From: Bacteriovoracia bacterium
Lineage (GTDB): Bacteria > Bdellovibrionota > UBA1018 > JBFWNL01
Assembly: GCA_050251055.1 (NCBI GenBank)
Contig: JBFWNL010000002.1
Span: 351,961 to 415,960 of the forward strand
DNA length: 64,000 bases
Reading direction: 5' to 3'
Shown: positions 39,271 through 62,337 of the stretch, piece after piece
Position numbering within the stretch: the stretch's first letter is position 1
Layout of the letters: each line of letters starts with the position of its first letter
Program-made: the position numbers and the translations under genes
Notes under the pieces: model-generated
Seen by the model: only the letters and a program-made list of their open reading frames with translations
Database searches by the model: none
Told to the model about the DNA's origin: nothing

Positions 39271-39274
39271 GCGC

Positions 39275-42200
39275 CTACGGAACGGACACGGAAATCGTCA
39301 TCCCCGTGCTATTGTTCCAATAGCTCCCGCTGGCTGACACCGTCTTCACCAACGCCCGTACCTGATAGCGATAACTGCCGGCGACGACCGCTGACTGCAC
39401 ATATGACGTCGCGATGGTCTGGCCGATACGCTGAAAGGCGCCGCCGGACGCGGAAGCCCGGTAGACGTGATAGATCACGCCCGCCGCTGCCGATGGCTCC
39501 CAGCTCAAGGTGACTGTACGAGCCCCCGTGGAACCGCTGACCGCCGCTGCGACCCCGGAAGGGCCCGGGACCATTTGGGTGCGAAGGGTCGGATCACCCA
39601 TCAATGGAACCGCAAAGGGAGCGGAGTCCAGGCTGGGGCAAGCCAATGTGCCCTCATAGAGTGGAGGAGTCGCCGAAAAACAGTATCCCGACGAAGGAGA
39701 AGCAGCCGCCCAGCTGTTGTTAATCGAGCGAAGCGAAGCATAGCCGAGATTGAAACCCATCGGCAGGTGTTGGCCAAAAAAATTCACCAGTCGTCCCTGA
39801 GTGGAAGCCAGACCGTAGCCTTCGGCGGCCAGAGGCGCGCGGAGGAAGTTCTCCTGTACGTCCCAGTCGCCGAAATAGCTACCAATCAAGGTATAAAACA
39901 CGCCGTACGTAGATTGCGATGCATACTCGTCGGTGCTAGCACCGTTGAATCCTTGGAAAGCCCCGGCCCCCGCTCCATGCACCCATAGGTACGGAGATTG
40001 GTTCAGCACCGGCACCAATCCACGCTGGGTTGGCGGCAGGGAGTATATATTCGCGGGGCCTACGGCGGGGCTCGCATTTCGCCAACCGTCGGTCGCCGGC
40101 CAGTTTTCGTAGGCTCCCAACCGATCGGAGATCAGCGCCCGTGAAGGCACCTGGAAGGTCGCTATTCGGTAGGCGTGGTTTTTATCGAGATAGCGTCGCA
40201 GCAAGCGGATCTCGAGCTGGGCGTCGGTTTCGCCGGCGCGCCGGAACGCCAGGCCCTGGCTCTCTGGCCGAGCCATGTTCGACAGATCCACCCGCCCGAC
40301 CTGAAGCTGGGCGCGAAAGCCGGGAATTTCGTTCTGATCGAACTTGCCGTCTCCCGGTACGTTCCGCAGCCGATCCGGAACCGGCGGAGGCAGCGTCACC
40401 ACGGTTGACTGATTCGCTTGGCAATCCGTCCAAGCGCGTTCGCGCACGTAAGTATAAACACTCATGCCGGCGGGAATTTGCGCACAATTCAAATCGACGG
40501 GCTTGAGCATTTCGCCATAAAACCAATCCGAAGGATGGGCGCCGTAAGTGTCGTGCGTGATTGGCTTGGTACCGGCGTAAGGAACCGGAACCCGGCCCAG
40601 CAGGAAAACCGCTTTCGTATTGATCGTGTCTTGCTGATACGCCCTCTGGATGGCGGCACGCACTCGCACGACCTGGCGGCCGCAATGACTTTGACCAGCG
40701 ATCGTTTCGCAGCTGTCGGGATTCCCGTCGACGTGGCGATCGACATCGAGGCGCACGACTTGCCAGCCGTCACCCTCTACGTCCGCAGTAAGTCGGGCGA
40801 TCTCGGGGCCTAGGATCGGCGCCAACGTTCGCTCCACCACGAGAACAAGCTTGCCGCGCGAATCCACGCGTGGAAGCTCAATTCCCGTATAGAGGTAACC
40901 GCGCCGGACGATGCCGGTCCCCGATGGATTGCGGCCGATCACGGCGTATTCGTAGCCTTGTCCCACGGTGATCCCGGTATCCACGAATCCCACCGCGGAT
41001 TGATATTCTGGAAAGAAAGGATCCGCGTGCATGATCCACTGGGGTTGGGATATGGGCGTCCATTGTGCGTCGTTCAGGCTTTTGCGGTAAACCTGGTACT
41101 GATTACTGCGGCTCATTTGTGGCCACTTCACGGTGATCCGTGCCGGCGAGGCGCTCACCTCGGCCTCCAGTTGCACGGTCGTGTCGACGGCGTGGGCGTC
41201 TTCGTGCGCGTCGATGTAGAAAGCGGGCAAGACCGCTTCCGTGACCCGGCCCGACGGTTCGCGTAACTGTACGCTCAACCGATGAACGGAGGTAAACCAT
41301 GCACCGACGACTTGCCGAGACGTGCCGATTTCCGCCCGAACATTACTGAAACTGAGCACGCGATCACGTGAACCCCGGACGTGTTCGCCAATGGGAGGAA
41401 CCGACTCATCCACGAGCAGGCGTCCGTCCAAGTACCATTGGTAAGTTAACCCGACCGGAACGGGAGCGTCGATCGCGACCTCGAAAAAAGCGTTCTGGTG
41501 CCGGTGAAAAGTAATCGCTCCGCCCACCGGGGGTTCAGGGTATAGCCTTACTGGCAGACCGCTCGAAGCTTCCGGCGTGACCTGCACCTGCGCGGTCTGG
41601 GTGTCAACCGACCGGCTGTCGATCCCGACCCGCACGCTGTATTCGCCGGCATCCGAGAACTCGACCGATTCGACTGTCAACGTGCTGGAGTCAAATTCAC
41701 GGGTGATGCCCACGCGCTCGCTCGCCATGAGAGGGGCTCCGTCCTTCAGCCACTGCACCGGGGTACCGGCGACGGCGTAGAATCTCGCGCTCAAAGTCAG
41801 CCGTGCCCCTGCCACCAGGGTCACTCCCGCAGGCGCCTCCGCTATACGGGGGCTGAGCTCCGCCACGGCCGGCGCCCGCCCCCAGTTACCGAGAAGAATG
41901 GGAAGGTCACGCGAGTCCACGCGTCCATCGCCGTTGAGATCGGCCGCGCCCCCGGTCGTGCCCCAACTGGCGAGAAAAGTCGCGTTGTCGGTGGCATCCA
42001 CCTGCCCATCGCGGTTAATATCTCCCGGAACCGGCGACACGGTAATCACGGCCGGCGAGCTAGTGGTGGTTCCGTGAGCGTTCGAAACCACCGCCTCGTA
42101 GCTACCCGCGAAGTCCGGATGACCGAAGAGAACGAGCTCTGGTCCAGCTTCACCCACCAGTGGCAGACCGTTGCGACGCCAGGCCACGCTCGCGCTAGAC

Positions 42201-42430
42201 TCAGAATCGAAATCTACGTGTAGGCGCTCGACCCCTCCCAAAAAAACCGTGCGGGAAAATGGAGAAGCCGTGATGACCGGAGCCCCGGCGACGGAAGCAA
42301 TGGAGCCCAGGTTTTGCTCGACCCAAGCGGATTGCGCTTCACGCGCCGAAGGCCGGGCTCCCAAATCCAAGCAACCCGTTTGTGCAATTAAAGACAAACT
42401 CACTAGTGAACGTACCGCGAATAACCGCAT
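39275..42430 (-). CDS. Large secreted multidomain protein (Ig-like/FN3-like modules plus one dockerin-like repeat pair)
   Basis: Signal peptide and lipobox-like LIAQTGC. GDINRDGQVDATDNATFLASWGTT...DLNGDGRVDSRDLPILLGNWG dockerin-type double Ca-binding repeat. >1000 aa of beta-rich domains. Confidence 0.6.
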   Translation of the reverse strand: MRLFAVRSLVSLSLIAQTGCLDLGARPSAREAQSAWVEQNLGSIASVAGAPVITASPFSRTVFLGGVERLHVDFDSESSASVAWRRNGLPLVGEAGPELVLFGHPDFAGSYEAVVSNAHGTTTSSPAVITVSPVPGDINRDGQVDATDNATFLASWGTTGGAADLNGDGRVDSRDLPILLGNWGRAPAVAELSPRIAEAPAGVTLVAGARLTLSARFYAVAGTPVQWLKDGAPLMASERVGITREFDSSTLTVESVEFSDAGEYSVRVGIDSRSVDTQTAQVQVTPEASSGLPVRLYPEPPVGGAITFHRHQNAFFEVAIDAPVPVGLTYQWYLDGRLLVDESVPPIGEHVRGSRDRVLSFSNVRAEIGTSRQVVGAWFTSVHRLSVQLREPSGRVTEAVLPAFYIDAHEDAHAVDTTVQLEAEVSASPARITVKWPQMSRSNQYQVYRKSLNDAQWTPISQPQWIMHADPFFPEYQSAVGFVDTGITVGQGYEYAVIGRNPSGTGIVRRGYLYTGIELPRVDSRGKLVLVVERTLAPILGPEIARLTADVEGDGWQVVRLDVDRHVDGNPDSCETIAGQSHCGRQVVRVRAAIQRAYQQDTINTKAVFLLGRVPVPYAGTKPITHDTYGAHPSDWFYGEMLKPVDLNCAQIPAGMSVYTYVRERAWTDCQANQSTVVTLPPPVPDRLRNVPGDGKFDQNEIPGFRAQLQVGRVDLSNMARPESQGLAFRRAGETDAQLEIRLLRRYLDKNHAYRIATFQVPSRALISDRLGAYENWPATDGWRNASPAVGPANIYSLPPTQRGLVPVLNQSPYLWVHGAGAGAFQGFNGASTDEYASQSTYGVFYTLIGSYFGDWDVQENFLRAPLAAEGYGLASTQGRLVNFFGQHLPMGFNLGYASLRSINNSWAAASPSSGYCFSATPPLYEGTLACPSLDSAPFAVPLMGDPTLRTQMVPGPSGVAAAVSGSTGARTVTLSWEPSAAAGVIYHVYRASASGGAFQRIGQTIATSYVQSAVVAGSYRYQVRALVKTVSASGSYWNNSTGMTISVSVP

Positions 42431-42540
42431 GTGATTCCCCCGTTTTGACTTAAAACCACCCGAGACTCCATCATCGGAAATTTTTGGTCGGCGGCGGATG
42501 TGTCAAACGGGATGAGGGAGTTATATGTATTCCGGCGTAT

Positions 42541-43650
42541 TCAAGGCAGCGGCTGGAGCACGTAGTTCCCGCCCAAGGTCGCTACGCTGCCGTTGGTTTC
42601 GATCGTACCGGTTTCGGTCAATACCCCATTCCCGGACACCGAGTAGGAACGGATCTTCTGCAGGGCGGGTTCGCTAATATAGAGAAATTTACCGCTCCTT
42701 GATAAAGCTAACACCCGATCCGGCCGCGAAGTAAGGGGCACCGTCTGGACGATTGTCGGTGCATAGGTCGTGGAATCGAAGGTGATCGCGTAGAGAGAAG
42801 CATCTTCGTCGACCGAGAAAAGAATGCCGTCGGCGCCAAACGCTCCACTCTGAAGGCCTAGGTCCGCAGTAGAAGAAACCAATCGGATGGTTTCCGAAGC
42901 ATAATCGATCGCGTAAACCTGCGTGGCCGGGACGCCCCCGTTTAAACGCACGACCAAGAAGCTCTCGTCATGCGCCATGAAGAGCGCTGAAATGCCCGCC
43001 GTGGCGGTGATCGTGGATGTAATGGATAAAGCCGGCGCGGAAGCATCGACCCGAACCATATGAAGCGAGGCGGGAGTGCCGACGACGACGAACGCGTAAC
43101 GGCCCCGCTGGGAATAGGCGGAGAGTGCGCTCGCGCCCTGGCCACCCAAGTCACCTGTGTACGCCAGTAGCGTATTGCTTGATCCGTCCGCCGCGATCTC
43201 CGAGAGATAGAGGTAAGAAGCCAAACCGGCGCCCAGCAAAGAAATGACTTTAGAGGTATCGGGAATCCAGTAGGCTCCCCGCCAACGGTGGGTGCCGTTC
43301 CCAAGGCTTTCACTGAAGACCGATTGCAGGCTCGCGGTCGCCGGGGTGAGCTGAAAAATAGTGGTAGTCGCGGCCGGACCCACGGCCCAGCCGAACGTGC
43401 CGGTGGAATCGAAAACCAGTTGGCTATTTCCGGTTCCGGTCGACGTTCCGGCGAGCGTCAACGCCCCCGATGACGGATCGATCGTGAAAACTCGATGTAG
43501 GTAGGCACCGGAGCTCAACACCGCAGCAATCAAGAACTCCTTCGCCAGTACTGGACGTTGGAAATTTGCCGAGCACCCGCTGACTAAAACCAGCAGTGCA
43601 CCGCCGAATCCTTGGATCAGTCGAACCCGTGAAGAAAAGTAGGTCCCCAT
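42541..43650 (-). CDS. Lipoprotein, 7-bladed beta-propeller (lactonase-like) fold
   Basis: Lipobox LVSGC. Repeated ~45-aa blade-like segments. Start chosen at M16 (43650) to avoid overlap with the upstream gene; the track start is 43695. Confidence 0.5.
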   Translation of the reverse strand: MGTYFSSRVRLIQGFGGALLVLVSGCSANFQRPVLAKEFLIAAVLSSGAYLHRVFTIDPSSGALTLAGTSTGTGNSQLVFDSTGTFGWAVGPAATTTIFQLTPATASLQSVFSESLGNGTHRWRGAYWIPDTSKVISLLGAGLASYLYLSEIAADGSSNTLLAYTGDLGGQGASALSAYSQRGRYAFVVVGTPASLHMVRVDASAPALSITSTITATAGISALFMAHDESFLVVRLNGGVPATQVYAIDYASETIRLVSSTADLGLQSGAFGADGILFSVDEDASLYAITFDSTTYAPTIVQTVPLTSRPDRVLALSRSGKFLYISEPALQKIRSYSVSGNGVLTETGTIETNGSVATLGGNYVLQPLP

Positions 43651-43676
43651 AGAGTATCGAAAGCATACGCCAAGTG

Positions 43677-45365
43677 TCATGACCGTGGAACGCAAATCGC
43701 CGTTGCTCTGGGTGGAGTGTCACAAGCACCTACCGCGTGTACATAAATCTCCCATAGTGCGCCGGCGGAAGTTCCGTTCGGCTTCACGAATCCCCAGGCT
43801 CCGGTGTCACATCCTCCCGTATGCATCCCGTTCAAAGTGCAACTATAGTTCGCCAAAGTCATTCCGGAGAGCGTGCAGGTAGTGCCGCCTGGAGTGGACG
43901 TAGTGTCCGTGCAGGTGTGCTCCGCCCAGGTGATGTTCGGAGTTGGCTGGACCGGTCGGCACTTAGGGCGGGTCAGACCACTCGTACCATCCAGCCCTTC
44001 CATCACCTGTCCGGCCGGGCACACGTAATGGAGCGGTACAAAATAAGAATGGCCGTTATTATCTTTTGTAAGGAATTTTTCAGAAGGCACGGGCGTATTC
44101 GATCCCACCGGTGATTTAAAATTAAATCCCGTATTGAAAACACAACCTGCTGGGGTCGACAAGTATCCCGGTTGCCCCACCCGACATTGCCCGCCACCGT
44201 GAGCCGGGACTTCGACCGAGTCTGCGACTAGTTTCTGACTAACGGTAACGTTGCCTTGAATGGAAACTCCACGAAAGTTACCGATGCCGAGATTTGTGAT
44301 CCCCCAGCTATAACCGCCACCAGAGTAGTAGCCGCCTCGTAGATTGCCGCCAATACTTAAACCTTGATCGTCGACATTGTAAGCCGTACCCGGACCCACG
44401 TTGGTTCCTGCGCTCGCGATGGCAAGCCTCGGAAAGACGCACCCCACGCCGGTTTGCCAGCTCCCGGTCAAAGCCTGGCAAACCGCTTCCCCGTCGGGAG
44501 CACCCGGCGCGCTCGGGGGCACCCCGGCCGGTGAGCGGCCAGAGAAAAGCTCGCAACCGGTAATCTGGCTACCGTTGGTTTGGACGGAAAGCAGGAACTC
44601 GTCTTGATACTCGGAGCCCCCCAGCGCGGCGAGATGACGCCCGGACGGATCCCCGGCGGCCGCCATTTGAAAGCGCGAAATGAACTCGTTCGTGGCTCCG
44701 GGTACTGGCACCGCATCGGCTAATCGCAACGTGGTTAGAACCAAGCCCGGCGTAAGCGGCCGTCCCCGACGAACGCTCACAGACCCGACTCGAAGCTCCT
44801 CGAAATCCACGGGGGAAAATGTTCCGCCACCTCCTCCCGAACTGCCGGATCCGGACGACGTTCCTCCCGGGCTCGTCGGCACGCGATTCCAGTTTCCTAG
44901 TAAGACCGCGAGGTCAGGGGATCCGACTCGCCCATCGTGATTCAAGTCGGCCGGAAGCGAAGGGCCGGTCGCGTTCCAAGCGCCGAGCATTAGGGCAAGA
45001 TCTGGAGAGCCGACTAACCCGTCGCCGTTGATGTCGCCTTCGGCAGCTGTTCCCGGTACGGGAGGAGCCGTCCCGGAAGCGCCTGCGAAAGATGTACCGC
45101 CTAAATTGGCCGTACAAGCTTTAGCTAGGATGAGTTTTACTGAGTTCGCGGTGTCCTGGAACTCCGCCACCTGGGTGACCTTCTTCGATCCGCGCAGGCT
45201 CTGGGTGGTGATCTGGGTTTGGGTGGCAAGCAAGATTCCCATCAAGCCCATCGCAACCAGCACCGAGATCAAGGATTGGCCATTGGACGAAAAGAAATTA
45301 GACTTCAATTTTTCCCCCGTAGAAACGAAAAAGCAAGGCGGCACGGAGCGAGGATTCTGGGGCAT
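43677..45365 (-). CDS. Pilin-like N-terminal helix fused to dockerin-like repeats and a large Gly/Ser-rich beta domain
   Basis: N-terminus NGQSLISVLVAMGLMGILLA resembles a type IV pilin/pseudopilin hydrophobic helix (Q and S replace F1 and E5). GDINGDGLVGSPDLALMLGAWN...DLNHDGRVGSPDLAVLLGNWN dockerin-type repeats. Confidence 0.5.
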   Translation of the reverse strand: MPQNPRSVPPCFFVSTGEKLKSNFFSSNGQSLISVLVAMGLMGILLATQTQITTQSLRGSKKVTQVAEFQDTANSVKLILAKACTANLGGTSFAGASGTAPPVPGTAAEGDINGDGLVGSPDLALMLGAWNATGPSLPADLNHDGRVGSPDLAVLLGNWNRVPTSPGGTSSGSGSSGGGGGTFSPVDFEELRVGSVSVRRGRPLTPGLVLTTLRLADAVPVPGATNEFISRFQMAAAGDPSGRHLAALGGSEYQDEFLLSVQTNGSQITGCELFSGRSPAGVPPSAPGAPDGEAVCQALTGSWQTGVGCVFPRLAIASAGTNVGPGTAYNVDDQGLSIGGNLRGGYYSGGGYSWGITNLGIGNFRGVSIQGNVTVSQKLVADSVEVPAHGGGQCRVGQPGYLSTPAGCVFNTGFNFKSPVGSNTPVPSEKFLTKDNNGHSYFVPLHYVCPAGQVMEGLDGTSGLTRPKCRPVQPTPNITWAEHTCTDTTSTPGGTTCTLSGMTLANYSCTLNGMHTGGCDTGAWGFVKPNGTSAGALWEIYVHAVGACDTPPRATAICVPRS

Positions 45366-45517
45366 ATCCCGGGGGCCTCCGGGATCAAAGGAACGTCCGC
45401 ACCGCCCTGCTCTTTCTTCTCCTACTAACTTGCTACGATTCGTTTCCCTTTTCGATTATTTCTGATCAAAAAAATCCACTTTTGTATTCCTACGTATTCC
45501 ACGTCCATTTTCCCTAT

Positions 45518-45748
45518 TCAAACCGGGTCGTTCCGTACAAAATAGCTGAGGCATTGAGCCGTGTCCGTAATTCTCGGAGCTTCCGGAAGCAATGCCTCCA
45601 ATATCGCCGCGATTTCCTTGACCGGAGTTTCCTCAAACTCAGATGACCCGTTTTCGGCGCGGCTGGTGGTGGCCACCCATACCACCAGCCAACTGCAGAC
45701 CGCTATCCGCCTCAATCTATGTCGACTCATGCTAGATCTTTCTTTCAT
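45518..45748 (-). CDS. Possible small secreted protein (76 aa)
   Basis: ORF with basic N-region plus hydrophobic stretch. Lies inside the GTATTCC repeat region. An alternative plus-strand ORF (45561-45752) covers the same DNA. Confidence 0.2.
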   Translation of the reverse strand: MKERSSMSRHRLRRIAVCSWLVVWVATTSRAENGSSEFEETPVKEIAAILEALLPEAPRITDTAQCLSYFVRNDPV

Positions 45749-45834
45749 TTAACTACCTTTATCTCAGATAACCGCGGCTATACTTACGATCAGCTAGGTC
45801 GCGGACTCGTCTCGAAACGTGACTTCTATTCCTT

Positions 45835-46209
45835 TCACCACCAGTGACAGTGGTAGGTATGCGCGGGCTGGACCTCGCACCCATATGCGCGCGCCATACA
45901 AAACGTGTGTCGAAGTATCAAACGCAGGTTGATACAGGCGTTGGGATTGACTTGGTACTCCGTCAAGTCGAGGCAATTATTGAACTCGCAAAACCCAGCT
46001 TGCGCTTCCAATGCGGCCTCGATGGCCTCACAGTTTGTTGTCCAATCCGGCGTGAAGTCCCGACATAGTCCATCCTCCTGATCTGCGAAAGGATCCATGA
46101 ACTGTTCGGGCTCGGGGGGGCCTACAAAACCGGGATCTGGATCTCCCGCCGCCGAGTGGGCCACCAAAAAAACGATTAGCGCCAAGAACAATGCACGAAC
46201 TCGGTTCAT
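45835..46209 (-). CDS. Small secreted cysteine-rich protein (8 Cys, 124 aa)
   Basis: Signal peptide MNRVRALFLALIVFLVAHSAAG. Acidic mature region with 8 cysteines. Ends ...HCHWW. Confidence 0.5.
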   Translation of the reverse strand: MNRVRALFLALIVFLVAHSAAGDPDPGFVGPPEPEQFMDPFADQEDGLCRDFTPDWTTNCEAIEAALEAQAGFCEFNNCLDLTEYQVNPNACINLRLILRHTFCMARAYGCEVQPAHTYHCHWW

Positions 46210-46456
46210 CTCGCCTCCTCCTTCATGAGTGATTCACAAAACGATAAGGCCCGGGGAGAGAAAAATCCTTCAACTTGCCAGGGCTACGGACGTATCCGTA
46301 TTCGGCGGTATTCCAAACGACGACGAGCGCCTGTATTCCGAAACCCGACGGAAAACCCCCCCTCAATACAACGACTTGGCAGGGGAAATCCCCGCTGGAA
46401 TACAGGCCAAATTCGACACATTCCGCACACCCCTTTGTTTCTGGTAACTTAGGCAT

Positions 46457-47341
46457 ATGACCACTCGTAGTACGTTAGAGCGGCCATGCATCTTTGAATA
46501 CAACGACTACCGCCGCTACTTGAAGGACTTCTACGCCCATAAAAAGAGCCAGAAAGGCGCGGGGTTTTCCTTTCGCTCGCTCGCGAAAGCCGCGGGCTAT
46601 AGCTCGCCGAACTTCTTCAAGCTCGTGATGGACGGACAGCGTAATATGTCCGACGAGAGCATCACCCGCATCGCGCTGGTGCTCAAACTCAGCAAGCAAG
46701 AAGCCGTATTTTTCTTTAGCCTAGTTCACATGAACCAGGCGCAGACGAGCGAGGAGCGCGAGCGTTTCGCGGCGGAACTGATGAACAGTGCCGGATTCCG
46801 CAAGATCCACCCGCTCAAGGAGGCCCAATATAACTTTTACGCGAAGTGGTACATCGCCCCGATCCGTGAGCTCATCGCCACGGCTGACTTCCAAGAAGAC
46901 CCGGAATGGATCGCGAAGCAGATGACCCCGCCGATCACCGCGCGGGAGGCGAAAGTCGCGCTCGACGAGCTCCAAACCCTGGGTATGGTCCGCCGTGACG
47001 AGTCCGGCCGGTTGCTCCAGGTGAACAACCTCGTGAACACGTCGGACGAAGTGATGTCGACTTCCTTGAGCCGCTACCACAAACAAATGATCCGCCTAGC
47101 CGGCGAATCGATCGACCGTTTTTCCCGCTACGAGCGGGAGATTTCCAGCGCGACTCTGTCCGTTTCCGAGGATTGCGCTAAGAAGGTGAAACAGCTCATC
47201 CAAGAGTTTCGCGAACAGATCTTGCAGCTCGCCGCCGAGGACACCTCGACTTGCGAGCGGGTGTACCAAGTCAACTTCCAGTTGTTTCCCATGTCCGGGA
47301 AACCAGGGGGAACCGGGGGGACGAGCAATGGAGCCGTTTGA
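46457..47341 (+). CDS. Putative DNA-binding protein with XRE-like HTH (TIGR02147-like family)
   Basis: FSFRSLAKAAGYSSPNFFKLVMDGQRNMS fits a helix-turn-helix. Family-typical N-terminus YNDYRRYLKDFY. Family name recalled from memory, not searched. Confidence 0.5.
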   Translation: MTTRSTLERPCIFEYNDYRRYLKDFYAHKKSQKGAGFSFRSLAKAAGYSSPNFFKLVMDGQRNMSDESITRIALVLKLSKQEAVFFFSLVHMNQAQTSEERERFAAELMNSAGFRKIHPLKEAQYNFYAKWYIAPIRELIATADFQEDPEWIAKQMTPPITAREAKVALDELQTLGMVRRDESGRLLQVNNLVNTSDEVMSTSLSRYHKQMIRLAGESIDRFSRYEREISSATLSVSEDCAKKVKQLIQEFREQILQLAAEDTSTCERVYQVNFQLFPMSGKPGGTGGTSNGAV

Positions 47342-47894
47342 TTCACGCTTTTTCCGCGGCAGCGCGGTACTGACCTTGCTGATCACATCCGCTTGCTCCG
47401 TGGGAGGTGGCGGCGGCGGAACTTCCGCCAGCAGCGCCGACTTCGGCGGTTCCGGCGCCGGAAACCCTATTACATTTTCTGAAAACTTCGCCGTGCGGCT
47501 CTGTGAAAGCACCGCCGGGATCCCGATTGATGGCTTGGACGCCCGCGACTGTGCTAACTCGGCGATGGACCATGTCGACATCACGCCCGCCTTGGGATTG
47601 CCCACGGTCATCGACACCCTTCGCCTCGCTAAACGGCTCGAGCTAGAAGGACGCTTGCGGCCCGGTCCCGACGCCGGAGCTTGCTTGGCTCAGATGAGCG
47701 GAGAGAGTTTCTGCAACATCGACATCGCGGTCGAAAGTTCCGGTGGCGGCGCGTACTCGTCGAACAGCTTCGAGCTGCCGGTGGAAACTCCCGTCGTGTC
47801 CTGCTACATCCCTCCGGTATGCCGGCAGGTCTTCAAACGGGTTCGCGGAATGGATTCCATCGACGCGCTCACGCCTCCTGCCTTATCGCCTTAG
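47328..47894 (+). CDS. Putative cysteine-rich lipoprotein
   Basis: Signal peptide with LITSAC, followed by a Gly-rich linker. 8 cysteines. Confidence 0.45.
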   Translation: MEPFDSRFFRGSAVLTLLITSACSVGGGGGGTSASSADFGGSGAGNPITFSENFAVRLCESTAGIPIDGLDARDCANSAMDHVDITPALGLPTVIDTLRLAKRLELEGRLRPGPDAGACLAQMSGESFCNIDIAVESSGGGAYSSNSFELPVETPVVSCYIPPVCRQVFKRVRGMDSIDALTPPALSP

Positions 47895-48006
47895 TAGTTT
47901 CGGACAGGATACGCCGGAATACGTTTCCCATTCGCGCGCGATCGGCATCGTTGAGCCAAAGCCAAAAACCGCGCATCCTACCTAAGATAGCATCAAGGGG
48001 GGATTC

Positions 48007-50769
48007 ATGCACACGTATGCAGATGGACGGGCGGGCAGCTCGACCTTGACTCTACTCGTGCTTTTCGCGGCGGCTGGCGCGACGGCCTGGACATATATCG
48101 GCTCTGCGCATTGGCAGCTGGCCGCGTTCTCGCACCGGACTCTAGAAACCTCGCGCATCGAGAACGACCTACGCAATTTTGCGAACCGAGTCATGCCGCT
48201 CGTAAAGAACTCCGCCTGCGGCGCTCCCGGAGACTGGCGCGAGCTTCGTTTCTTGCCTTCGGCGGGCACGCCCATCCCCCCACCCCTCGAGGGAGATGTC
48301 AATGACGACAATCGGGTCGACTCGGCGGACCTTGGAATCGTATTGGCCACTTGGGGGCAAGTACCAGGATATGTTCCGGGACAGCCTTCCATTCGCTCCG
48401 ATTTCAACCGGGATGGACTGGTGAACTCCGTCGATCTAACGGTGATCCTCTCGCATTGGGGTGATCGGCGCGATCCACCGGCGGACGACGAAAATAGCGT
48501 ACCCGTGGTCGGCCCGGCCGGCGTCCGCGCCTGGTGCCAACTGCCCGCGAACGGGGGGGCCCAGGACAAAGTCGCGAAGTTCTCCCGCTTCCAACCTTCC
48601 ACTTCTACTCAGAACGCATTAATTACGATTCACGTCGCCTGGCAGGAAGTTCCCGCCGCCTATCCAGGAGTTGGCGGATGGAACGACTACATTCGCGTCA
48701 CGGAACCGACCCGACCCATTTATCAACAAACCAGCGCGACCTCCGACTGCACGGTCAATGGTAATCAAAGTGCGAGCATCTGCGTCCATGCCGGGGAGCT
48801 ACGCCGATTTGTTTTTCGCCACCACCGCACCTGTGGGGATATCCGTATCGAAGACGCATTAAACGCATTCCGATGGGAATGCCAGGATCAGGACGGATTC
48901 GTAACCGCGTACTCACTAGGACTGCGGCCCGGACGCGGACTTAAGGACTTAGTCGACCTCGGGGGCTGGAAGCAAAATTCCGTCCGCCTCGTTAGTCGTC
49001 TTCACGCGACCCTGGTGGCGGAAACCGCCCGTTCCGCTTGGTGGAGAAATCCCGTGCGGAATATTCCCGCTTCCGAACCCGATGCCGTTTCTCCCGTCCA
49101 ACTCGGAGGGGAAGTGGGAACGATCTGGATCGCCGAGCGTCATTCCACCGCACCGGGATACCGCGTTACCGCCGATCGAGCGGCGGTGGTCACCCTGCCC
49201 GGCGCATCCTTGGGTTACCGATCGCGGGATCCGAATGCAACTCCTTGCCATGATTCAACCGTCGGGACCAATTTCCGTTGCGTAATCTTCACCGACGAAG
49301 GGATGGGCGAACGGCGTCATCTTTGGATCGAAGCCGACATCGTATCCTCCAACAACGATGGTCACGCCTGGTTCGCCCTGGTACCGACGGCCCACGCCAG
49401 CTCCGGCTCCTCAGCTTCGATCGGCGTGTTTCTGCAGAATACCCATCTCTCGCGGATTCACCAACTAAGGGTAGTCGGCGTCTCCGGGCAAGACGGAGAT
49501 TCTTGCCGTGGAGGGGACGGACTGCGGCTGTCGGGGTCCCACGGCAACCGGGTGACGGAAGTCGAGCTAGCGACGAATTCTTGCTACGGCATGAATCTCT
49601 CGGCCTCGAACGGGAACTATATTCATCGGCTGCGCGTCGCAAACAACGGCGCGGGAGTCCGGCTGTGGAACTCGCGGCAAAACAGGTTCACTCACCTGAT
49701 AGTCTCGAATCACGGCAATATACTCGATCCTCAGGCCGGCGTGGGACTGCGCATCGGCGGAGCCACTCCGGCCGAAGGCGGGGAGAACGTCGTCCAGCAA
49801 GCGACAATTTTCTCCAACTCGGGCGACGGCATTCGATTGGAGTCCGCGCGCAATTACTTGGTGGCCGTGACCACGGCGCAAAATCGCAATGGCGTTATGG
49901 TCACGGGGGCCGAAAACGTAATTCACAATCTAACGGCCCATCGCAACCTCGACGCCGGAGTTCGTTTCTTTGGCGGTGGAGGCCGGACGATCAGTCACGT
50001 AGTGAGTAGTCGAAACCGCAATATGGGAGTTTCCGTCGCGGCCACCGACGCAGCCTACGGGGTGGACATTTTTCGCGGGCTCCTAGTATTGGGCCAAAAC
50101 GGCCAGAATTGCCTGGGCTTTCCGGAGGACCCACGCGCGCCCATACAAACCGGCGAAAGCTGCCTGCTTCGGGACGCCACGGGTATAGTACAACTGGGTG
50201 CGGACACGGAAGCAAGTTTTCTAGGCCCATTGATGGAAGACGATTCCGTAAACTCGTCGGATCTGGCGGGCGGTGCCGTCGTCGGTATCGCGCCGCCCGA
50301 CTTTGACTGGTTCGGCTTCGCTTCCGCCAGACGGGCGTGGGGCCAAGCGGACCCTCACCGCGCCGAACTCTGTGGCAGCTGTCGCATTTGGGACTGGGAC
50401 CTCAGCCCCCTACCGGCTTCTCCCCTTTACCGGCACACTGCCCGGGGAATCGCCGGGATCCAAAGCGAATTTCCCTCGCTTCCGGACCAGGCCTGCCCGC
50501 CGGAGTTAAGTTCTCCGGAAAATGTCACACACCACGGAAGTGTCGGTTATCTTACCGTCGCGATCGAAGTGTCTGGGGACGTCGGCATATCCATGGGAAA
50601 CGACAACGGTATATGCGAAACTTCGGAGCGCTGCATCTACACGCCCAACTTCGGATCCGACCAGAACGACGGTCGACCGAACTCGATCGAGCAAACTTGC
50701 CAGCTCGAAGATCTGCCCGAGTTCAGAAATATGCGAGTTCACGGCTTCACGTGGGGAAATCAGCTATGA
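48007..50769 (+). CDS. Giant secreted protein: pilin-like N-terminal helix, dockerin-like repeats, right-handed parallel beta-helix (PbH1-like) repeats
   Basis: N-terminus GRAGSSTLTLLVLFAAAGATAW. GDVNDDNRVDSADLGIVLATWG...DFNRDGLVNSVDLTVILSHWG dockerin-type repeats. Tandem ~22-aa repeats (NNGAGVRLWNSRQN / SNSGDGIRLESARN / QNRNGVMVTGAEN / HRNLDAGVRFFGG) typical of pectate-lyase-like beta-helices. Cysteine-rich C-terminus. Confidence 0.6.
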   Translation: MHTYADGRAGSSTLTLLVLFAAAGATAWTYIGSAHWQLAAFSHRTLETSRIENDLRNFANRVMPLVKNSACGAPGDWRELRFLPSAGTPIPPPLEGDVNDDNRVDSADLGIVLATWGQVPGYVPGQPSIRSDFNRDGLVNSVDLTVILSHWGDRRDPPADDENSVPVVGPAGVRAWCQLPANGGAQDKVAKFSRFQPSTSTQNALITIHVAWQEVPAAYPGVGGWNDYIRVTEPTRPIYQQTSATSDCTVNGNQSASICVHAGELRRFVFRHHRTCGDIRIEDALNAFRWECQDQDGFVTAYSLGLRPGRGLKDLVDLGGWKQNSVRLVSRLHATLVAETARSAWWRNPVRNIPASEPDAVSPVQLGGEVGTIWIAERHSTAPGYRVTADRAAVVTLPGASLGYRSRDPNATPCHDSTVGTNFRCVIFTDEGMGERRHLWIEADIVSSNNDGHAWFALVPTAHASSGSSASIGVFLQNTHLSRIHQLRVVGVSGQDGDSCRGGDGLRLSGSHGNRVTEVELATNSCYGMNLSASNGNYIHRLRVANNGAGVRLWNSRQNRFTHLIVSNHGNILDPQAGVGLRIGGATPAEGGENVVQQATIFSNSGDGIRLESARNYLVAVTTAQNRNGVMVTGAENVIHNLTAHRNLDAGVRFFGGGGRTISHVVSSRNRNMGVSVAATDAAYGVDIFRGLLVLGQNGQNCLGFPEDPRAPIQTGESCLLRDATGIVQLGADTEASFLGPLMEDDSVNSSDLAGGAVVGIAPPDFDWFGFASARRAWGQADPHRAELCGSCRIWDWDLSPLPASPLYRHTARGIAGIQSEFPSLPDQACPPELSSPENVTHHGSVGYLTVAIEVSGDVGISMGNDNGICETSERCIYTPNFGSDQNDGRPNSIEQTCQLEDLPEFRNMRVHGFTWGNQL

Positions 50770-51266
50770 AGACGCACGGCCAGCACCCACAGATAGGGGG
50801 GTTCACGTTGATCGAAACCACCATCACGCTGGCGATCCTGATGTCGGCCATCTGGGCTCATGCAAGCATGGAATCCCAATCGCGACGCTGGCGTGAAAAC
50901 GTGGCTCGCCGCTGGCAGGCGCAAAACACGGCGGAGAATATCGCCGACATGATCGGGACACTGGATGCGGAAGGATTTAAAGCACTGATCCTGACTCGTG
51001 CTACGGGTTTGAGCTACCTCGAACCGATGCGGTCACCGGATCACCCTTGGTTGTCGGCTTGGCTCCACCGTCCGGACCAGGAAGCCATAGAGGTTTCCGT
51101 CGCCCTCTACTATCCGACCCACCCGTCGGTGCGCCTAGACACCCTTCCCGTCTCGCTTGCCGATTTCAATCCGTTCTCCTTTGAACGCGAAATCACGGTG
51201 ACCGTGTCTTATCTTAACCCTTCGTCAAGGACATATGTATGGACCACGCGCCTTTCCCACGATTGA
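50766..51266 (+). CDS. Type IV pilin/pseudopilin-like protein (prepilin N-terminal cleavage/methylation motif)
   Basis: MKTHGQHPQIGG|FTLIETTITLAILMSAI, the canonical G/FTLIE prepilin motif. ATGA overlap with the giant gene stop. Confidence 0.7.
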   Translation: MKTHGQHPQIGGFTLIETTITLAILMSAIWAHASMESQSRRWRENVARRWQAQNTAENIADMIGTLDAEGFKALILTRATGLSYLEPMRSPDHPWLSAWLHRPDQEAIEVSVALYYPTHPSVRLDTLPVSLADFNPFSFEREITVTVSYLNPSSRTYVWTTRLSHD

Positions 51267-51874
51267 ACGATGGCCAGGGTTTCGGACTCCTTGAATTGAT
51301 GGCGTTTCTCGCGGTGAGCACGACTCTGGGTCTGGCTGTGCTCAACTTTTCCACCTCGGGTTTCCAGATGCGACTTGGCGTCACTCGTGGGTCGGAAATA
51401 CACCGCGATGCCCTACTCGCGGCGGAGACTCTTCGCAAGGACGTCCGGCGCGCCGACACTATCCGCTTGGTTGGTGCCCGGCTCGAACTAGGGGTTCGTG
51501 AGTTCGAATCCGACTCGGGTCAGACTCTGACCGGTGAAATCATTTACGAAATACAACCCGCCCCGTGCATGAATCCGGGCAGGCGCGCTTGCGTGAGCTT
51601 GCGCCGAACCCGGGTGCTTCCCAATTCCGAATTCACCCAAACCCTAGCGAACTTGCAAAACCTGGAGTGGTGCGTGCCGTCGGCTAGCTCCGCCTGCATA
51701 ATTACTAGCCTGGAACACGCCCTGCCCACCCGCTTAACTTCTCGAAAGCTGGAAGCCGCGTTTCACTTTTCCACGATTTCACCACCCATCACGCTCATCG
51801 TAGACCTTCAGAATCGTATAAATTCGAATAGCCAAGGACTTAAGAGTACAACCGTCGTGATCGGCGCCAACTAA
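51263..51874 (+). CDS. Type IV pilin/pseudopilin-like protein (second copy)
   Basis: GQG|FGLLELMAFLAVSTTLG prepilin motif with E5. Start chosen at TTG 51263 (TTGA overlap with the previous stop), giving a 6-aa leader MNDGQG. The track ATG at 51239 gives a 14-aa leader. Confidence 0.6.
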   Translation: MNDGQGFGLLELMAFLAVSTTLGLAVLNFSTSGFQMRLGVTRGSEIHRDALLAAETLRKDVRRADTIRLVGARLELGVREFESDSGQTLTGEIIYEIQPAPCMNPGRRACVSLRRTRVLPNSEFTQTLANLQNLEWCVPSASSACIITSLEHALPTRLTSRKLEAAFHFSTISPPITLIVDLQNRINSNSQGLKSTTVVIGAN

Positions 51875-51968
51875 CGCACCACCGCATCCGGAAATACCGC
51901 TGGAGAAGCATACAGATTATCCACACCCTTCGATTGCCGGGTCGAACTATTCCAGATAGAACCACGGA

Positions 51969-52241
51969 ATGAAAAGCTACTTCCGCATCACCGGCTTCGC
52001 CACGCTGTTTTGCACGGTCTTGGTGGGCTGGTTCTCGCCCCATGTAATCGGTTGGTACTTCACGCCCCCCGTGGACCTCTCCGTGAGCTGCGGGCCGGCG
52101 GTCGCCTGGGGAATCGACACCTACCGAAAAGTGATGGCTTGGGGGGCGCTAGGTGGGTTCGTCCTCGCGACGGCGCTCTTTATCTTGGTGAAGATGCGCA
52201 AGGGCGGCGGCGCCCAGTCCGGCAAACTGAACACGCCCTAA
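51969..52241 (+). CDS. Small membrane protein (2 transmembrane helices, 90 aa)
   Basis: Two hydrophobic helices and a basic C-terminus. Confidence 0.4.
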   Translation: MKSYFRITGFATLFCTVLVGWFSPHVIGWYFTPPVDLSVSCGPAVAWGIDTYRKVMAWGALGGFVLATALFILVKMRKGGGAQSGKLNTP

Positions 52242-52262
52242 CCCGTGCATCCTCCATTTTGA

Positions 52263-52874
52263 TTACTTCGCGAACACTTGGCTCAAAAGCTTGACGTACG
52301 AGCCGTCGGTAAAAAAGTCGAGCGCCATGCGGTTATGCGGCATCCCGCTGCCTTGGCTCGGCACACGCTTGCCAACGGTAATTCCGCGGTGGCTGCCATC
52401 CGCACGATGCACGTCCGTCAAGCCGACGAGCCAAGAATCTACGTTCTGGTAGTAAGTGTAATTCAACTCGACGTTCTCCGGGATGACTTCGGGCAAACGT
52501 TCGCGGAAAAACTTCGGCACAATATCCAACGTGATCATTAATGGAATGCGAATCGTCGCCGTGGCGGGATCCGCTTCCAAGCACTCGGCGATCTCCAGCG
52601 CGGCGACCGCTCCCCAACTGTGGCCCGTCAGCACGAGCGTGCCCAGCGTTCCTTCGAGATACTCCTCCTTGATCTCCAAGCAAGCTTCTTCCCACTCGCT
52701 GTTATGCATAATGGTGAACCGAGGCGCCGCTCCGAACGCGCGCACCTGCTTCGCCACCTCGTCGGCGGCATTGCGAAAGCGTTCGCTTTGATAATCCACG
52801 GGTCCGCCCGTGAAGTAGAATACTCGGTCACCCGCCAGTGCCTGGCTGAGAAACAACAATAAAAATGTAAACAT
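52263..52874 (-). CDS. Secreted lipase/esterase (alpha/beta hydrolase, GHSWG nucleophile motif)
   Basis: Signal peptide MFTFLLLFLSQALAG. LTGHSWGAVAALE (GxSxG). Confidence 0.6.
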   Translation of the reverse strand: MFTFLLLFLSQALAGDRVFYFTGGPVDYQSERFRNAADEVAKQVRAFGAAPRFTIMHNSEWEEACLEIKEEYLEGTLGTLVLTGHSWGAVAALEIAECLEADPATATIRIPLMITLDIVPKFFRERLPEVIPENVELNYTYYQNVDSWLVGLTDVHRADGSHRGITVGKRVPSQGSGMPHNRMALDFFTDGSYVKLLSQVFAK

Positions 52875-52991
52875 GCCCGGTCCCCCCGAAATCTCATCTC
52901 ACCCGTGGTGGCCCAGACGTACCAAACCCATGCGCGACTTGCCTAGGTTTTTCCTGGGCATTTGGGTTTTTCCTAAGTAAAAGTAATTTCT

Positions 52992-58897: not shown

Positions 58898-59110
58898 AGG
58901 AGCCACCACTTCTCAACCCGCCCGCAGAGAACTTCCTGCCCCACCGCCCATCCTGAAAAGTATCTTCGTACGAGGGGGCGTCCCCGGGCCAGGATGGCGC
59001 TGAGGGGTCGAGCGCATGGATGCGCGTCCCCCTCGTACGAAGATACTTTTCAGGATGGGTGGTGGGATGAAAGATTGTTTGTGCGCGGGTTGAGAAGTGG
59101 TGGCTCCTCC
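58898..59110. repeat. Imperfect long inverted repeat (two conserved blocks of ~26 and ~36 nt per arm, ~45-nt central spacer) whose right arm includes the tRNA-Leu 3' end
   Basis: Block 1 plus-strand copy 58898-58923 ggaggagccaccacttctcaacccgc vs revcomp of the second copy ggaggagccccacttctcaacccgc. Block 2 cccatcctgaaaagtatcttcgtacgaggggg (plus-strand copy 58948-58979) vs gtccccctcgtacgaagatacttttcaggatggg (plus 59026-59059, reverse-complement orientation). Confidence 0.75.
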
Positions 59111-59183
59111 GAGACTCGAACTCGGACACCCGTGAGGATACTGGATTTTGAGTCCAGCGCGTCTACCAATTCCACCAAGGAGC
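59100..59183 (-). tRNA. tRNA-Leu (anticodon CAA), type II with long variable arm; CCA not encoded
   Basis: Manually folded: acceptor GGCTCCT/AGGAGCC, D-loop GAATTGGTAGA, anticodon stem CTGGA/TCCAG, loop CTCAAAA, 15-nt variable arm, T-arm CCGAG-TTCGAGT-CTCGG. Confidence 0.85.
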
Positions 59184-59223
59184 CACGACGGATTGCGTCG
59201 AAAATATACTGACTGGATCTTTT

Positions 59224-61026: not shown

Positions 61027-62337
61027 ATGTGGAATCTATCGATCTTGGACCCGTCTGGTGAAACCCGTACCGTAAAACTGCCGACCGAAGGCGAAACCGA
61101 AGTCAGCGGTGTACGCCCGAATGGCGAGCGCCCGGCCGGGCACGTGGAGCTGCGCGATCCCACCGCTCGGGCCGTATTGAACCTGCGCATGGAAGAAAAC
61201 GCGGTTTTTTTCCGGGTGGATCCGACATTCCCTCCTGTGAGGGTAGGAGGCCTCGAAGTGTTTCATGGCCGCTGGCCCGAGGAAATTACGCTTCAGCTCG
61301 GGGAAACCAAACTCGTGCTTCAACGCCCCCGTGCGGACCATACCCTCCCCAAACAACCATCGCACCTCGTTCCCTGGCTCACCGACGGCGAGGCCGGCCG
61401 TCAGGTGCTATGGACTTTGAAGAAGACCGCACCCACTTCCCTTTCTATCTACTTCGAGGGCGAGACGGGCACCGGTAAGGAGATCCTCGCCCAGCTCGCG
61501 CATGCCTGGAGCGAGCGCGCCACCGGGCCATTCGTTCCTCTGAACTGCGGGGCGCTCTCCGTTTCGCTCGCCGAAAGCGAGCTTTTCGGCCACGTAAAAG
61601 GAGCCTTCACCGGTGCCGATCGGCAACGCCCGGGCGCGCTGATGCAAGCGCACGGGGGCACGCTCTTTCTAGACGAAGTCGGGGATCTTTCGCCGGAAAT
61701 TCAAGTGAAGCTGCTCCGCTTTTTGGAAAACGGCGAAATTCGGCCCGTCGGCTCCGACAGCTCGCACCGGGCGGATGTGCGGGTCGTATGCGCGACCCAC
61801 AAGCCGCTCGAAAGCTTAGTCGCCGAAGGGAAGTTTCGCCGCGACCTGTACTTTCGCCTAGCCTCTATCACCATAGCGATCCCGGCGCTGCGAGACCGCC
61901 CGGAGGACGTGGAGCTGCTCGCGCGTCGCTTCGCCGATTCGCTCCAACGTGGCATCGCGACGGCGGCGATCTCGCGCCTCCAGGCGCATGCTTGGCCCGG
62001 AAACGTACGCGAACTTCGTCACGCCGTGGAGCGCGCCTGCGGAATGGCCGGCCCTTTCCAGAGCATCTTGCAGGATGCGGATTTTCAGTTCCTGCTCACG
62101 CCACGTAACGTGGCCGCCCGCCCGGAGGTGGAGCTCGGCGCCGCCGTGCTCACCTTGAAGGAGATGGAGAGGGTGATGCTGCTCAAAGCCCTCCGCATCA
62201 GTCGCGGCAACCGAGCCAAAGCGGCGCGGACCCTCGGGATCGCGCGCAGCACGCTCTTCGAAATGCTCAAGCGGCACCGGATCATGGGACCGAAATACGA
62301 AGAGCTGCAAGCCGCGGGAATGCGGGGAGTGGCCTAA
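61027..62337 (+). CDS. Sigma-54-dependent transcriptional activator with N-terminal FHA-like domain and C-terminal Fis-type HTH
   Basis: AAA+ sigma54-activation domain (GETGTGKE Walker A, GAFTGA-like GAFTGADRQRPG, DEVGDL, arginine finger RRDLYFRL). C-terminal HTH RAKAARTLGIARSTLFEMLKRH. Confidence 0.8.
   Translation: MWNLSILDPSGETRTVKLPTEGETEVSGVRPNGERPAGHVELRDPTARAVLNLRMEENAVFFRVDPTFPPVRVGGLEVFHGRWPEEITLQLGETKLVLQRPRADHTLPKQPSHLVPWLTDGEAGRQVLWTLKKTAPTSLSIYFEGETGTGKEILAQLAHAWSERATGPFVPLNCGALSVSLAESELFGHVKGAFTGADRQRPGALMQAHGGTLFLDEVGDLSPEIQVKLLRFLENGEIRPVGSDSSHRADVRVVCATHKPLESLVAEGKFRRDLYFRLASITIAIPALRDRPEDVELLARRFADSLQRGIATAAISRLQAHAWPGNVRELRHAVERACGMAGPFQSILQDADFQFLLTPRNVAARPEVELGAAVLTLKEMERVMLLKALRISRGNRAKAARTLGIARSTLFEMLKRHRIMGPKYEELQAAGMRGVA

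Follow-up and report, generated by a model that had tools for sequence, protein, structure and literature searches.

A lineage-specific gene cluster of an uncultured Bacteriovoracia encodes dockerin-bearing proteins and putative modular minor pilins

A 13.6-kb gene cluster in the genome of an uncultured Bacteriovoracia (Bdellovibrionota) encodes three large proteins that each carry a dockerin. One of them also bears a module of a large beta-helix family, and its gene is translationally coupled to two prepilin genes. The cluster occupies positions 39271-52991 of the window, which is the whole 64,000-nt stretch analyzed here (positions 351,961 to 415,960 of contig JBFWNL010000002.1, assembly GCA_050251055.1; ~60% GC), and is bounded by a MATCAP-domain gene ending at 39270 and an SDR gene starting at 52992. 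Between these two genes lie two divergent runs. The plus-strand run encodes a TIGR02147 regulator, a lipoprotein of 188 amino acids (aa), a 920-aa protein, two prepilins of 166 and 211 aa, and a 90-aa membrane protein. The minus-strand run encodes a 124-aa Cys-rich secreted protein, a 76-aa secreted protein, a 543-aa protein (within a 562-aa open reading frame, ORF), a 379-aa propeller lipoprotein, and a 1051-aa Ig/Fn3 protein. We tentatively read the cluster as encoding modular minor pilins that resemble PilX and GspK, a reading to which we give slightly less than an even chance. The presence of two small pilin genes and of one or two large pilin-like proteins suggests that the beta-helix, predicted to be sugar-binding, may be carried by a type IV filament, which would be a rare form of modular pilin. 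In a Bacteriovoracia, such proteins could plausibly serve predation or adhesion.

The plus-strand run holds the genes from which this reading starts. The 920-aa protein (48007-50769 (+)) is translated from an ATG preceded by a GGGGGGA ribosome-binding site, and its N-terminus reads MHTYADGRAG/SSTLTLLVLFAAAGATAW... (here and below, the slash marks the putative cleavage site). The hydrophobic helix after Gly10 (SSTLTLLVLF...) is followed by Cys71, a dockerin, a short beta-rich spacer, and a beta-helix family module of ~690 aa. At 50766-50769 the TGA of this gene overlaps the ATG of the 166-aa gene (ATGA), and the 211-aa gene in turn begins within the 166-aa gene, the two sharing 28 nt. On the other strand, a second ATGA (43677-43680) joins the TGA of the 543-aa gene to the ATG of the 379-aa propeller gene. 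These two ATGA overlaps and the 28-nt overlap indicate operon organization, and they bear out what an earlier reading of the letters alone (the sequence-only reading) had claimed, namely that the large gene is coupled to two prepilin genes.

The 166-aa prepilin (50766-51266 (+)) reads MKTHGQHPQIGG/FTLIE, with the site GG/FTLIE, and the 211-aa prepilin (51239-51874 (+)) reads ...NDGQG/FGLLE. Both have Phe at +1 and Glu at +5. The first is weakly PilV/GspI-like, its scores lying under the family cut-offs (TIGR02523 PilV, E 0.019, 15.4 bits against 52.2; gspI, E 0.058, 13.9 bits against 44.35). The second is possibly PilW/GspJ-like, the only match being to PRK10557 (E 0.15), which falls short of membership; for PilX/GspK the 920-aa protein gives no match at all. 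Searching PDB sequences with the two small pilins returns nothing. The generic model TIGR02532 (cut-off 16.3 bits) recognizes the 166-aa protein alone, at a sub-threshold 13.3 bits. Called bona fide prepilins in the sequence-only reading, the two proteins are canonical by motif, whereas with 16.5 and 13.6 bits they stay below the 21.2-bit cut-off of N_methyl (PF07963). A hydrophilic leader ending in Gly, then ~20 hydrophobic residues, is present in the 166-, 211-, 543-, and 920-aa proteins, and these are the four ORF-initial pilin-like N-termini of the window, all inside the cluster. Glu5 is normally absent from tip pilins of the PilX and GspK types, which cap the filament (PMC7541494). The overlapping 920-, 166-, and 211-aa genes have the look of such a co-encoded set, with a larger Glu5-less subunit, a likeness that counts only if the 920-aa protein is a pilin. 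The mature form of the latter would start SSTLT, with neither Phe nor Met at +1 and no Glu at +5.

The beta-helix module covers residues ~214-900 of the 920-aa protein (48646-50706 (+)), and its PbH1 repeats are framed by Cys-rich subdomains, one N-terminal and one C-terminal. It matches Pfam Beta_helix at 42 bits and NosD at 36.8 bits. AlphaFold2 (AF2) with a family alignment gives a predicted local distance difference test score (pLDDT) of ~90 for residues 210-900, while its single-sequence model of the protein (pLDDT 34) is useless. The beta-helix proposed at the outset is thus upheld by its family matches, its PbH1 repeats, and its predicted fold. HMMER searches against 1.84 billion cluster representatives find 2064 relatives (250 at E<1e-30), which cover residues ~214-900 at ~30% identity. 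When 38 members are aligned, 20 columns are invariant, many of these being Cys, and distinctive motifs mark the start (V.P.YP.NGA.WNDYV) and the C-terminal end (GNDNGLCES.E.C.Y.PN.GAYQGEGD). The flanking Cys-rich subdomains are highly conserved, and it is mostly there, outside the repeat core, that the invariant columns lie. In Pfam and NCBIfam, the family is covered only by the generic models Beta_helix and NosD. The beta-helix core is similar to polysaccharide epimerases and lyases, to tailspike depolymerases, and to the adhesin PfbA, at 8-15% identity. No glycoside hydrolase or lyase catalytic signature turned up, the catalytic residues of defined enzyme families not having been searched for. 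Within their first 60 residues, 86 of the 147 top homologues have a PROSITE-type lipobox, and a prepilin motif or dockerin is found in none of the 147. The 920-aa protein thus has a helix-plus-dockerin module in place of the usual lipid anchor. Outside the dockerin and the beta-helix module, no homologues of the 920-aa protein are detected, and a word-indexed search with it returned only the protein itself or dockerin-only matches.

Several other members of the family have features of their own. P0015, a Joint Genome Institute (JGI) protein of 7030 aa, matches the family in seven stretches, perhaps repeated copies of the module. In the metagenome locus L089 (5611-8829 (+)), a gene for a family lipoprotein is followed 7 nt on by a gene for a PilA-like type IV pilin (NF041775, E 2.8e-12; TIGR02532, 22.6 bits, above the cut-off); upstream of the former is a short in-frame helix-turn-helix (HTH) segment, weakly HigA-like. 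In locus L091 (3020-5044 (+)), the product of the gene beside a family member is at least 675 aa long, with the canonical class III signal MSIKNQKG/LSLVEVLV and a PilV-like match (E 1e-4). It is another large modular pilin, and what can be seen of its C-terminal end (CLPADSKISLADGS...) is like the beginning of a Hint/intein-type domain. A tblastn search for TIGR02147 regulators adjoining family genes gave no match.

Dockerins are found in all three large proteins. With a gathering score of 22.9 bits, the Pfam model Dockerin_1 (PF00404) recognizes the 1051-aa protein at 38.2 bits, the 562/543-aa protein at 23.9 bits, and the 920-aa protein at 27.7 bits. The domains span residues ~135-183 of the 1051-aa protein (41882-42028 (-); two DxNxDGxVDxxD loops), ~88-141 of the 543-aa protein (44886-45047 (-)), and ~93-152 of the 920-aa protein (48283-48462 (+)). 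In each case phmmer finds alignments with cellulosomal dockerins of solved structure, among them 2y3n_B, 4fl4_A, and 1daq_A, the 920-aa dockerin matching 2y3n_B and 4fl4_A at E 2e-4. The Ca-ligand positions D1, N3, D5, and D12 are kept in all six loops. A strict six-frame motif for the dockerin loop finds only the three large ORFs in the window. The same motif has no match in 1.2 Mb of related Bdellovibrionota/Myxococcota loci, nor in 0.71 Mb of metagenome loci that hold beta-helix homologues. With three dockerins in 13 kb and none in the 1.9 Mb used for comparison, their clustering is not due to chance. One double Ca-binding repeat per large protein, as the sequence-only reading had it, is therefore what the Pfam threshold also returns (3/3), although its word "giant" is too strong for lengths of 543-1051 aa. 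The three dockerin genes also have in common a G-rich ribosome-binding site, GGGGGA or GGGGGGA, placed 4-6 nt upstream (42431-42445, 45309-45322, and 47993-48006), including that of the TTG start discussed below.

The 543-aa protein (43677-45308 (-)) is the second large protein with a candidate pilin N-terminus. Its ORF can be read as 562 aa from an ATG at 45365, but the start is most likely the TTG at 45308, since a GGGGGA site lies upstream and the 543-aa model (P0002) of the Prokaryotic Genome Annotation Pipeline (PGAP) begins there. The N-terminus then reads MKSNFFSSNG/QSLISVLVAMGLMGILL, or over a longer stretch MKSNFFSSNG/QSLISVLVAMGLMGILLATQ... It is followed by a Cys, the dockerin, a Gly/Ser linker, and a Cys-rich orphan C-terminal region. 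The putative leader (MKSNFFSSNG) and alpha1-like helix together make up residues 1-63 (45120-45308 (-)), within which 36 successive residues are uncharged. A 9-residue leader then Gly, and L3, I4, and G14 in the mature part, are features of a class-III-type signal, and the first Cys comes about 53 residues after the cleavage Gly; the mature start QSLIS lacks Phe or Met at +1 and Glu at +5. The N-terminal fragment scores 19.0 bits (E 0.001) with N_methyl, which is under the threshold and above the scores of both canonical prepilins. Residues 7-63 weakly match PRK10557, a model of prepilin-peptidase-dependent proteins (E 0.026), and TIGR02599, Verru_Chthon cassette protein C (E 0.066), presumably part of a prepilin-type gene cassette; this span is as long as a pilin alpha1 helix. 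Taken together, the 543-aa protein is credibly pilin-like on these matches. Outside the dockerin, a word-indexed search gave only itself or dockerin-only matches, hence no homologues, and a PDB sequence search with the C-terminal part gave nothing.

The 543- and 920-aa proteins have a common layout: Gly10, 35-36 uncharged residues, an amphipathic continuation, a Cys about 55-60 residues past Gly10, a linker, and the dockerin. In the neighboring Sec and lipoprotein signals, the uncharged run is 17-21 residues only. The two proteins are similar by BLAST (E 3e-11), and this is due to the dockerin.

A model of modular minor pilins can be proposed by comparing the cluster to filament tips. The plus-strand operon would be a minimal minor-pilin set, in which the Glu5-less 920-aa protein is encoded first and would correspond to tip subunits such as PilX or GspK. 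It would be followed, by translational coupling, by the PilV/GspI-like 166-aa and PilW/GspJ-like 211-aa prepilins. A prepilin peptidase encoded elsewhere would cleave all three, and the mature subunits would assemble into a complex that primes a type IV pilus or pseudopilus or sits at its tip. The tip of the filament would then present the Ca-binding dockerin of the 920-aa protein and a beta-helix that may bind or cleave a polysaccharide, perhaps for recognition of prey or of other surfaces. In the minus-strand operon, the 543-aa protein may be a second Glu5-less modular pilin-like subunit, made of helix, dockerin, and Cys-rich head, its gene being coupled to that of the propeller lipoprotein; the dockerin-bearing Ig/Fn3 protein of 1051 aa would be next in line. 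The dockerin shared by the 543-, 920-, and 1051-aa proteins probably links them in a Ca-dependent manner, among themselves or through a partner that all three bind.

The profile models, on which the sequence-only reading had staked its architecture, give a divided answer: the dockerin is significant in all three large proteins, while the pilin threshold is reached by none of the four candidates (0/4). N_methyl, with its 21.2-bit cut-off, gives 16.5 bits for the 166-aa protein, 13.6 for the 211-aa protein, 19.0 for the 543-aa protein, and no match for the 920-aa protein. For the 920-aa protein, membership in the pilin family is thus not established; the other three stay below threshold. Of the two large proteins said to begin like pilins, the 543-aa one keeps that description at a sub-threshold score, and the 920-aa one loses its support from profiles, with zero matches to N_methyl, TIGR02532, or the other pilin models. 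Its putative pilin status comes from its layout and from its translational coupling to two prepilin genes, and several observations weigh against it and against minor pilins in general. The protein may instead begin with a conventional Sec signal, for which AGA/T and GSA/H are possible cleavage sites, or with a signal anchor. AF2 gives pLDDT <50 on residues 1-205, where the predicted helices (11-33 and 48-67) are unreliable, and a pilin-type globular domain is not demonstrable there. Paralogy of the helices of the 543- and 920-aa proteins was considered and rejected: aligned alone, they reach E 2.4, and 306 of 2000 shuffles (15%) attain the observed score. The loose pattern of a Gly plus a hydrophobic run matches 16 times in 1.2 Mb, and the window holds one false positive; since plain membrane and signal sequences often show it, little weight can be put on layout by itself. 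A general link between the beta-helix family and pilin genes was likewise rejected, a prepilin being adjacent in two of 80 metagenome loci (L089 and L091), which is about the chance rate. Among the proteins scanned in the 64-kb window, which represent part of its ORFs, there is no PilD, PilB, PilC, or PilQ, no Gsp machinery, and no major pilin, and none of ~28 matches cohesin. Finally, the cluster is seen in this population alone, and conservation lends the model no support.

Most of these points speak equally for an ordinary island of exported or surface proteins, the main alternative and a real possibility, if in our judgment a somewhat improbable one. The N-termini of the 920- and 543-aa proteins would then be Sec signals or uncleaved anchors, and the small prepilins would be unrelated to them or loosely linked by sharing a transcript. 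The large proteins would be periplasmic, membrane-tethered, or exposed at the cell surface, as their lipoprotein relatives are. This would fit a beta-helix family that is normally lipid-anchored without any link to pilins, and neighbors that include three plain lipoproteins and two signals of the signal peptidase I type. However, a common function is favored by the ATGA overlap through which the 920-aa gene is coupled to that of a canonical prepilin. Moreover, on N_methyl the N-terminus of the 543-aa protein surpasses canonical prepilins and it aligns over 57 residues to models of prepilin-dependent proteins, and the uncharged run of both large proteins is about twice as long as in the Sec and lipoprotein signals of the cluster.

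The dockerins could also work independently of a pilus. In this case a cohesin-type scaffold encoded elsewhere would recruit the three dockerin proteins in a Ca-dependent way, as in a cellulosome, for the binding or degradation of surface polysaccharides. Three dockerins with intact Ca ligands within 13 kb, with none in the rest of the window or in the comparison loci, would fit such an assembly, as would a beta-helix resembling polysaccharide lyases, epimerases, and depolymerases. To our knowledge, though, dockerins are widespread outside cellulosomes, and for most of these no cohesin partner is known, and neither the cluster nor the other window proteins scanned contain a match to cohesin (PF00963), nor did a catalytic signature of glycoside hydrolases or lyases turn up. 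In putatively predatory Omnitrophota, dockerin-rich proteins are proposed to serve attachment, and they adjoin loci like those of a type II secretion system (T2SS) that include small genes with class III signals (bioRxiv 10.1101/2023.11.21.568195). We consider the pilus-independent assembly unlikely as an explanation of the cluster; it is compatible with modular minor pilins rather than exclusive of them. Both could even be combined in a docking platform mounted on the pilus, where Glu5-less tip pilins made of alpha1 and dockerin would recruit interchangeable modules (beta-helix, Cys-rich head, Ig/Fn3) Ca-dependently in order to recognize or breach the surface of prey, a bolder proposal that we hold to be quite unlikely. 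Finally, it is very unlikely that unrelated fast-evolving secreted proteins have come together by chance in a variable region without any common function: most cluster proteins lack detectable homologues, the region is missing beside MATCAP in 80 related genomes, and no repeats, tRNA gene, or integrase mark its flanks, but the density of dockerins, the operon-like gene overlaps, and the confinement of all four pilin-like N-termini of the window to the cluster all argue otherwise.

The 13.6-kb segment is lineage-specific. Two Logan contigs also hold the locus. For synteny, 80 GTDB genomes with the flanking MATCAP gene were compared (best identity 62%; mostly metagenome-assembled genomes of Oligoflexia, Bacteriovoracaceae, and Myxococcota), and in none of these is a cluster gene found within 10 kb of MATCAP. 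Conservation of the gene neighborhood in related genomes, offered by the sequence-only reading as a check, came out negative (0/80) and is therefore no evidence either way. An origin as a mobile element was examined and is unsupported: there are no flanking repeats and no integrase or tRNA gene at the borders, and the GC content is unremarkable. The segment thus appears to be a variable lineage-specific region and not a recognizable mobile element. The sole RNA gene matched by Rfam in the window is a tRNA-Leu(CAA) (59098-59184 (-)), ~6 kb from the cluster. Near it are a gene for a sigma-54-dependent activator (61027-62337 (+)) and a FliL-domain gene (62348-62956 (-)), neither apparently tied to the cluster. 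A scan for promoters and terminators showed no excess over shuffled expectation.

The remaining cluster proteins complete the two runs. The exported 1051-aa protein (39275-42430 (-); 1040 aa in the PGAP model) starts at an ATG preceded by GGGGGA and has a signal peptide, possibly of the lipoprotein type. Its domains are, in order, an Ig, the dockerin, an I-set Ig, more Ig/Fn3-like regions, a ~430-aa domain of unknown kind, and a C-terminal Fn3. Pfam scores are 52.6 bits for Ig_3 and 46.6 for I-set, next to the dockerin score given above, and sequence matches in the PDB are to titin and phage Ig-domain proteins. The sole clear relative is P0006, whose N-terminal part matches residues 408-1049 (39275-41209 (-)) at 32% identity (E 1e-82). 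P0006 is an Ig-repeat protein of 1688 aa from a Logan assembly, and the ~430-aa domain common to both, flanked by Fn3-like domains, has no Pfam model. The 379-aa protein (42541-43680 (-)), also present as a Logan gene model, is a lipoprotein (LLVLVSGC/S) and a probable seven-bladed beta-propeller. The propeller lipoprotein of the sequence-only reading thus finds weak support in a Lactonase match of 24.9 bits (Pfam cut-off 21.7), and its HTH regulator is a clear member of TIGR02147/DUF4423 (262.8 bits against a cut-off of 50, and 141.2 bits, respectively). The regulator gene (46457-47341 (+)) is the first of the plus strand, divergent from the minus-strand genes, and overlaps by 14 nt the gene for the 188-aa Cys-containing lipoprotein (47328-47894 (+); lipobox LLITSAC), which has no family match. 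None was found either for the small secreted 76-aa protein (45518-45748 (-)), whose N-terminus is like a signal peptide, or, in Pfam and NCBIfam, for the Cys-rich secreted 124-aa protein (45835-46209 (-)).

The last plus-strand gene (51969-52241 (+)) encodes the 90-aa protein, which has two hydrophobic segments, the second near the C-terminus, and no family match. It starts MKSYFRITG/FATLFCTVLVGW, which is prepilin-like without Glu5. Between this gene and the SDR gene, a 203-aa secreted protein is encoded at 52263-52874 (-). It contains a GHSWG nucleophile-elbow motif, has weak matches to alpha/beta-hydrolases, thioesterases, and lipases (E 0.01-0.2), and is likewise missing from the MATCAP loci of the related genomes.

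How type IV filaments acquire their surface specificity is an open question, and prey recognition by Bdellovibrio-like predators is only partly understood. If the cluster does encode modular minor pilins, then a pilus or pseudopilus tip with a polysaccharide-active beta-helix and a Ca-switchable dockerin would be a new effector combination among modular pilins. It would also provide the first functional context for non-cellulosomal dockerins, and for a beta-helix family of more than 2000 representatives, mostly lipoproteins. If instead the N-termini are ordinary signals, the cluster would merely be a lineage-specific island of surface proteins, of local interest.

Each part of the cluster can be compared with known systems. 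From the epimerases AlgE4 and AlgG, the K1 and K5 capsule lyases, the phage tailspike depolymerases, and PfbA, the beta-helix of the 920-aa protein differs by its low identity (8-15%), and no catalytic motif has been identified. With the type I dockerins of the Clostridium thermocellum cellulosome, the cluster dockerins share two 22-residue EF-hand-like repeats, the D1/N3/D5/D12 ligands, and a helix after them. However, they are internal and near the N-terminus instead of C-terminal, their DLxxLLxxWG signature is of the non-cellulosomal type, and neither scaffoldin, cohesin, nor the catalytic domain of a carbohydrate-active enzyme (CAZyme) was found among the window proteins scanned. Within its own family, the beta-helix of the 920-aa protein aligns end to end over residues 214-900, at ~30% identity and with conserved Cys pairs; it differs by having a hydrophobic helix and a dockerin where relatives (86/147) have a lipobox.

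Among modular pilins, the closest likeness to the large proteins is a class-III-type helix that bears a bulky module and whose gene adjoins small minor pilins, as in Streptococcus sanguinis PilB (vWA) and PilC (lectin), Thermus ComZ, and CofB of enterotoxigenic Escherichia coli (ETEC). Three of the domain entries that matter in this comparison, IPR002105, IPR039448, and IPR007742, we take to be the dockerin repeat, the right-handed beta-helix, and the NosD beta-helix, respectively. Modular pilins are widespread, with >1200 proteins (1219) in 264 architectures (PMC8179133). In Dataset S1 of that survey, IPR012902 occurs with IPR002105 in three proteins, and with IPR039448, with or without IPR007742, in five, while dockerin and beta-helix never occur in one architecture; ComZ is itself a pilin with a beta-solenoid (PMC8179133). 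There is therefore no support for placing the architecture beyond known pilus biology, N_methyl with a dockerin and N_methyl with a beta-helix both being catalogued already, and the cluster is at most a variant within modular pilins and no new category. What sets it apart is that the N-termini of the 543- and 920-aa proteins lack Phe1 and Glu5 and stay below the N_methyl threshold, that the 920-aa protein joins a dockerin and a beta-helix, and that the dockerin comes right after the long helix and not after a recognizable pilin globular domain.

The last comparison is with the complexes of PilX or GspK with PilV-PilW or GspI-GspJ. The cluster differs from these in having the gene of the large subunit first, in the lack of a PilX_N or T2SSK match in that subunit, and in its three subunits only, with no FimU/GspH, PilY1, or machinery genes among the nearby proteins scanned. 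In both cases, however, a larger Glu5-less subunit is co-encoded with two small Glu5-bearing ones, the 166-aa protein being weakly PilV/GspI-like and the 211-aa protein weakly like a prepilin-peptidase-dependent protein, and the tip would here expose an extra module.

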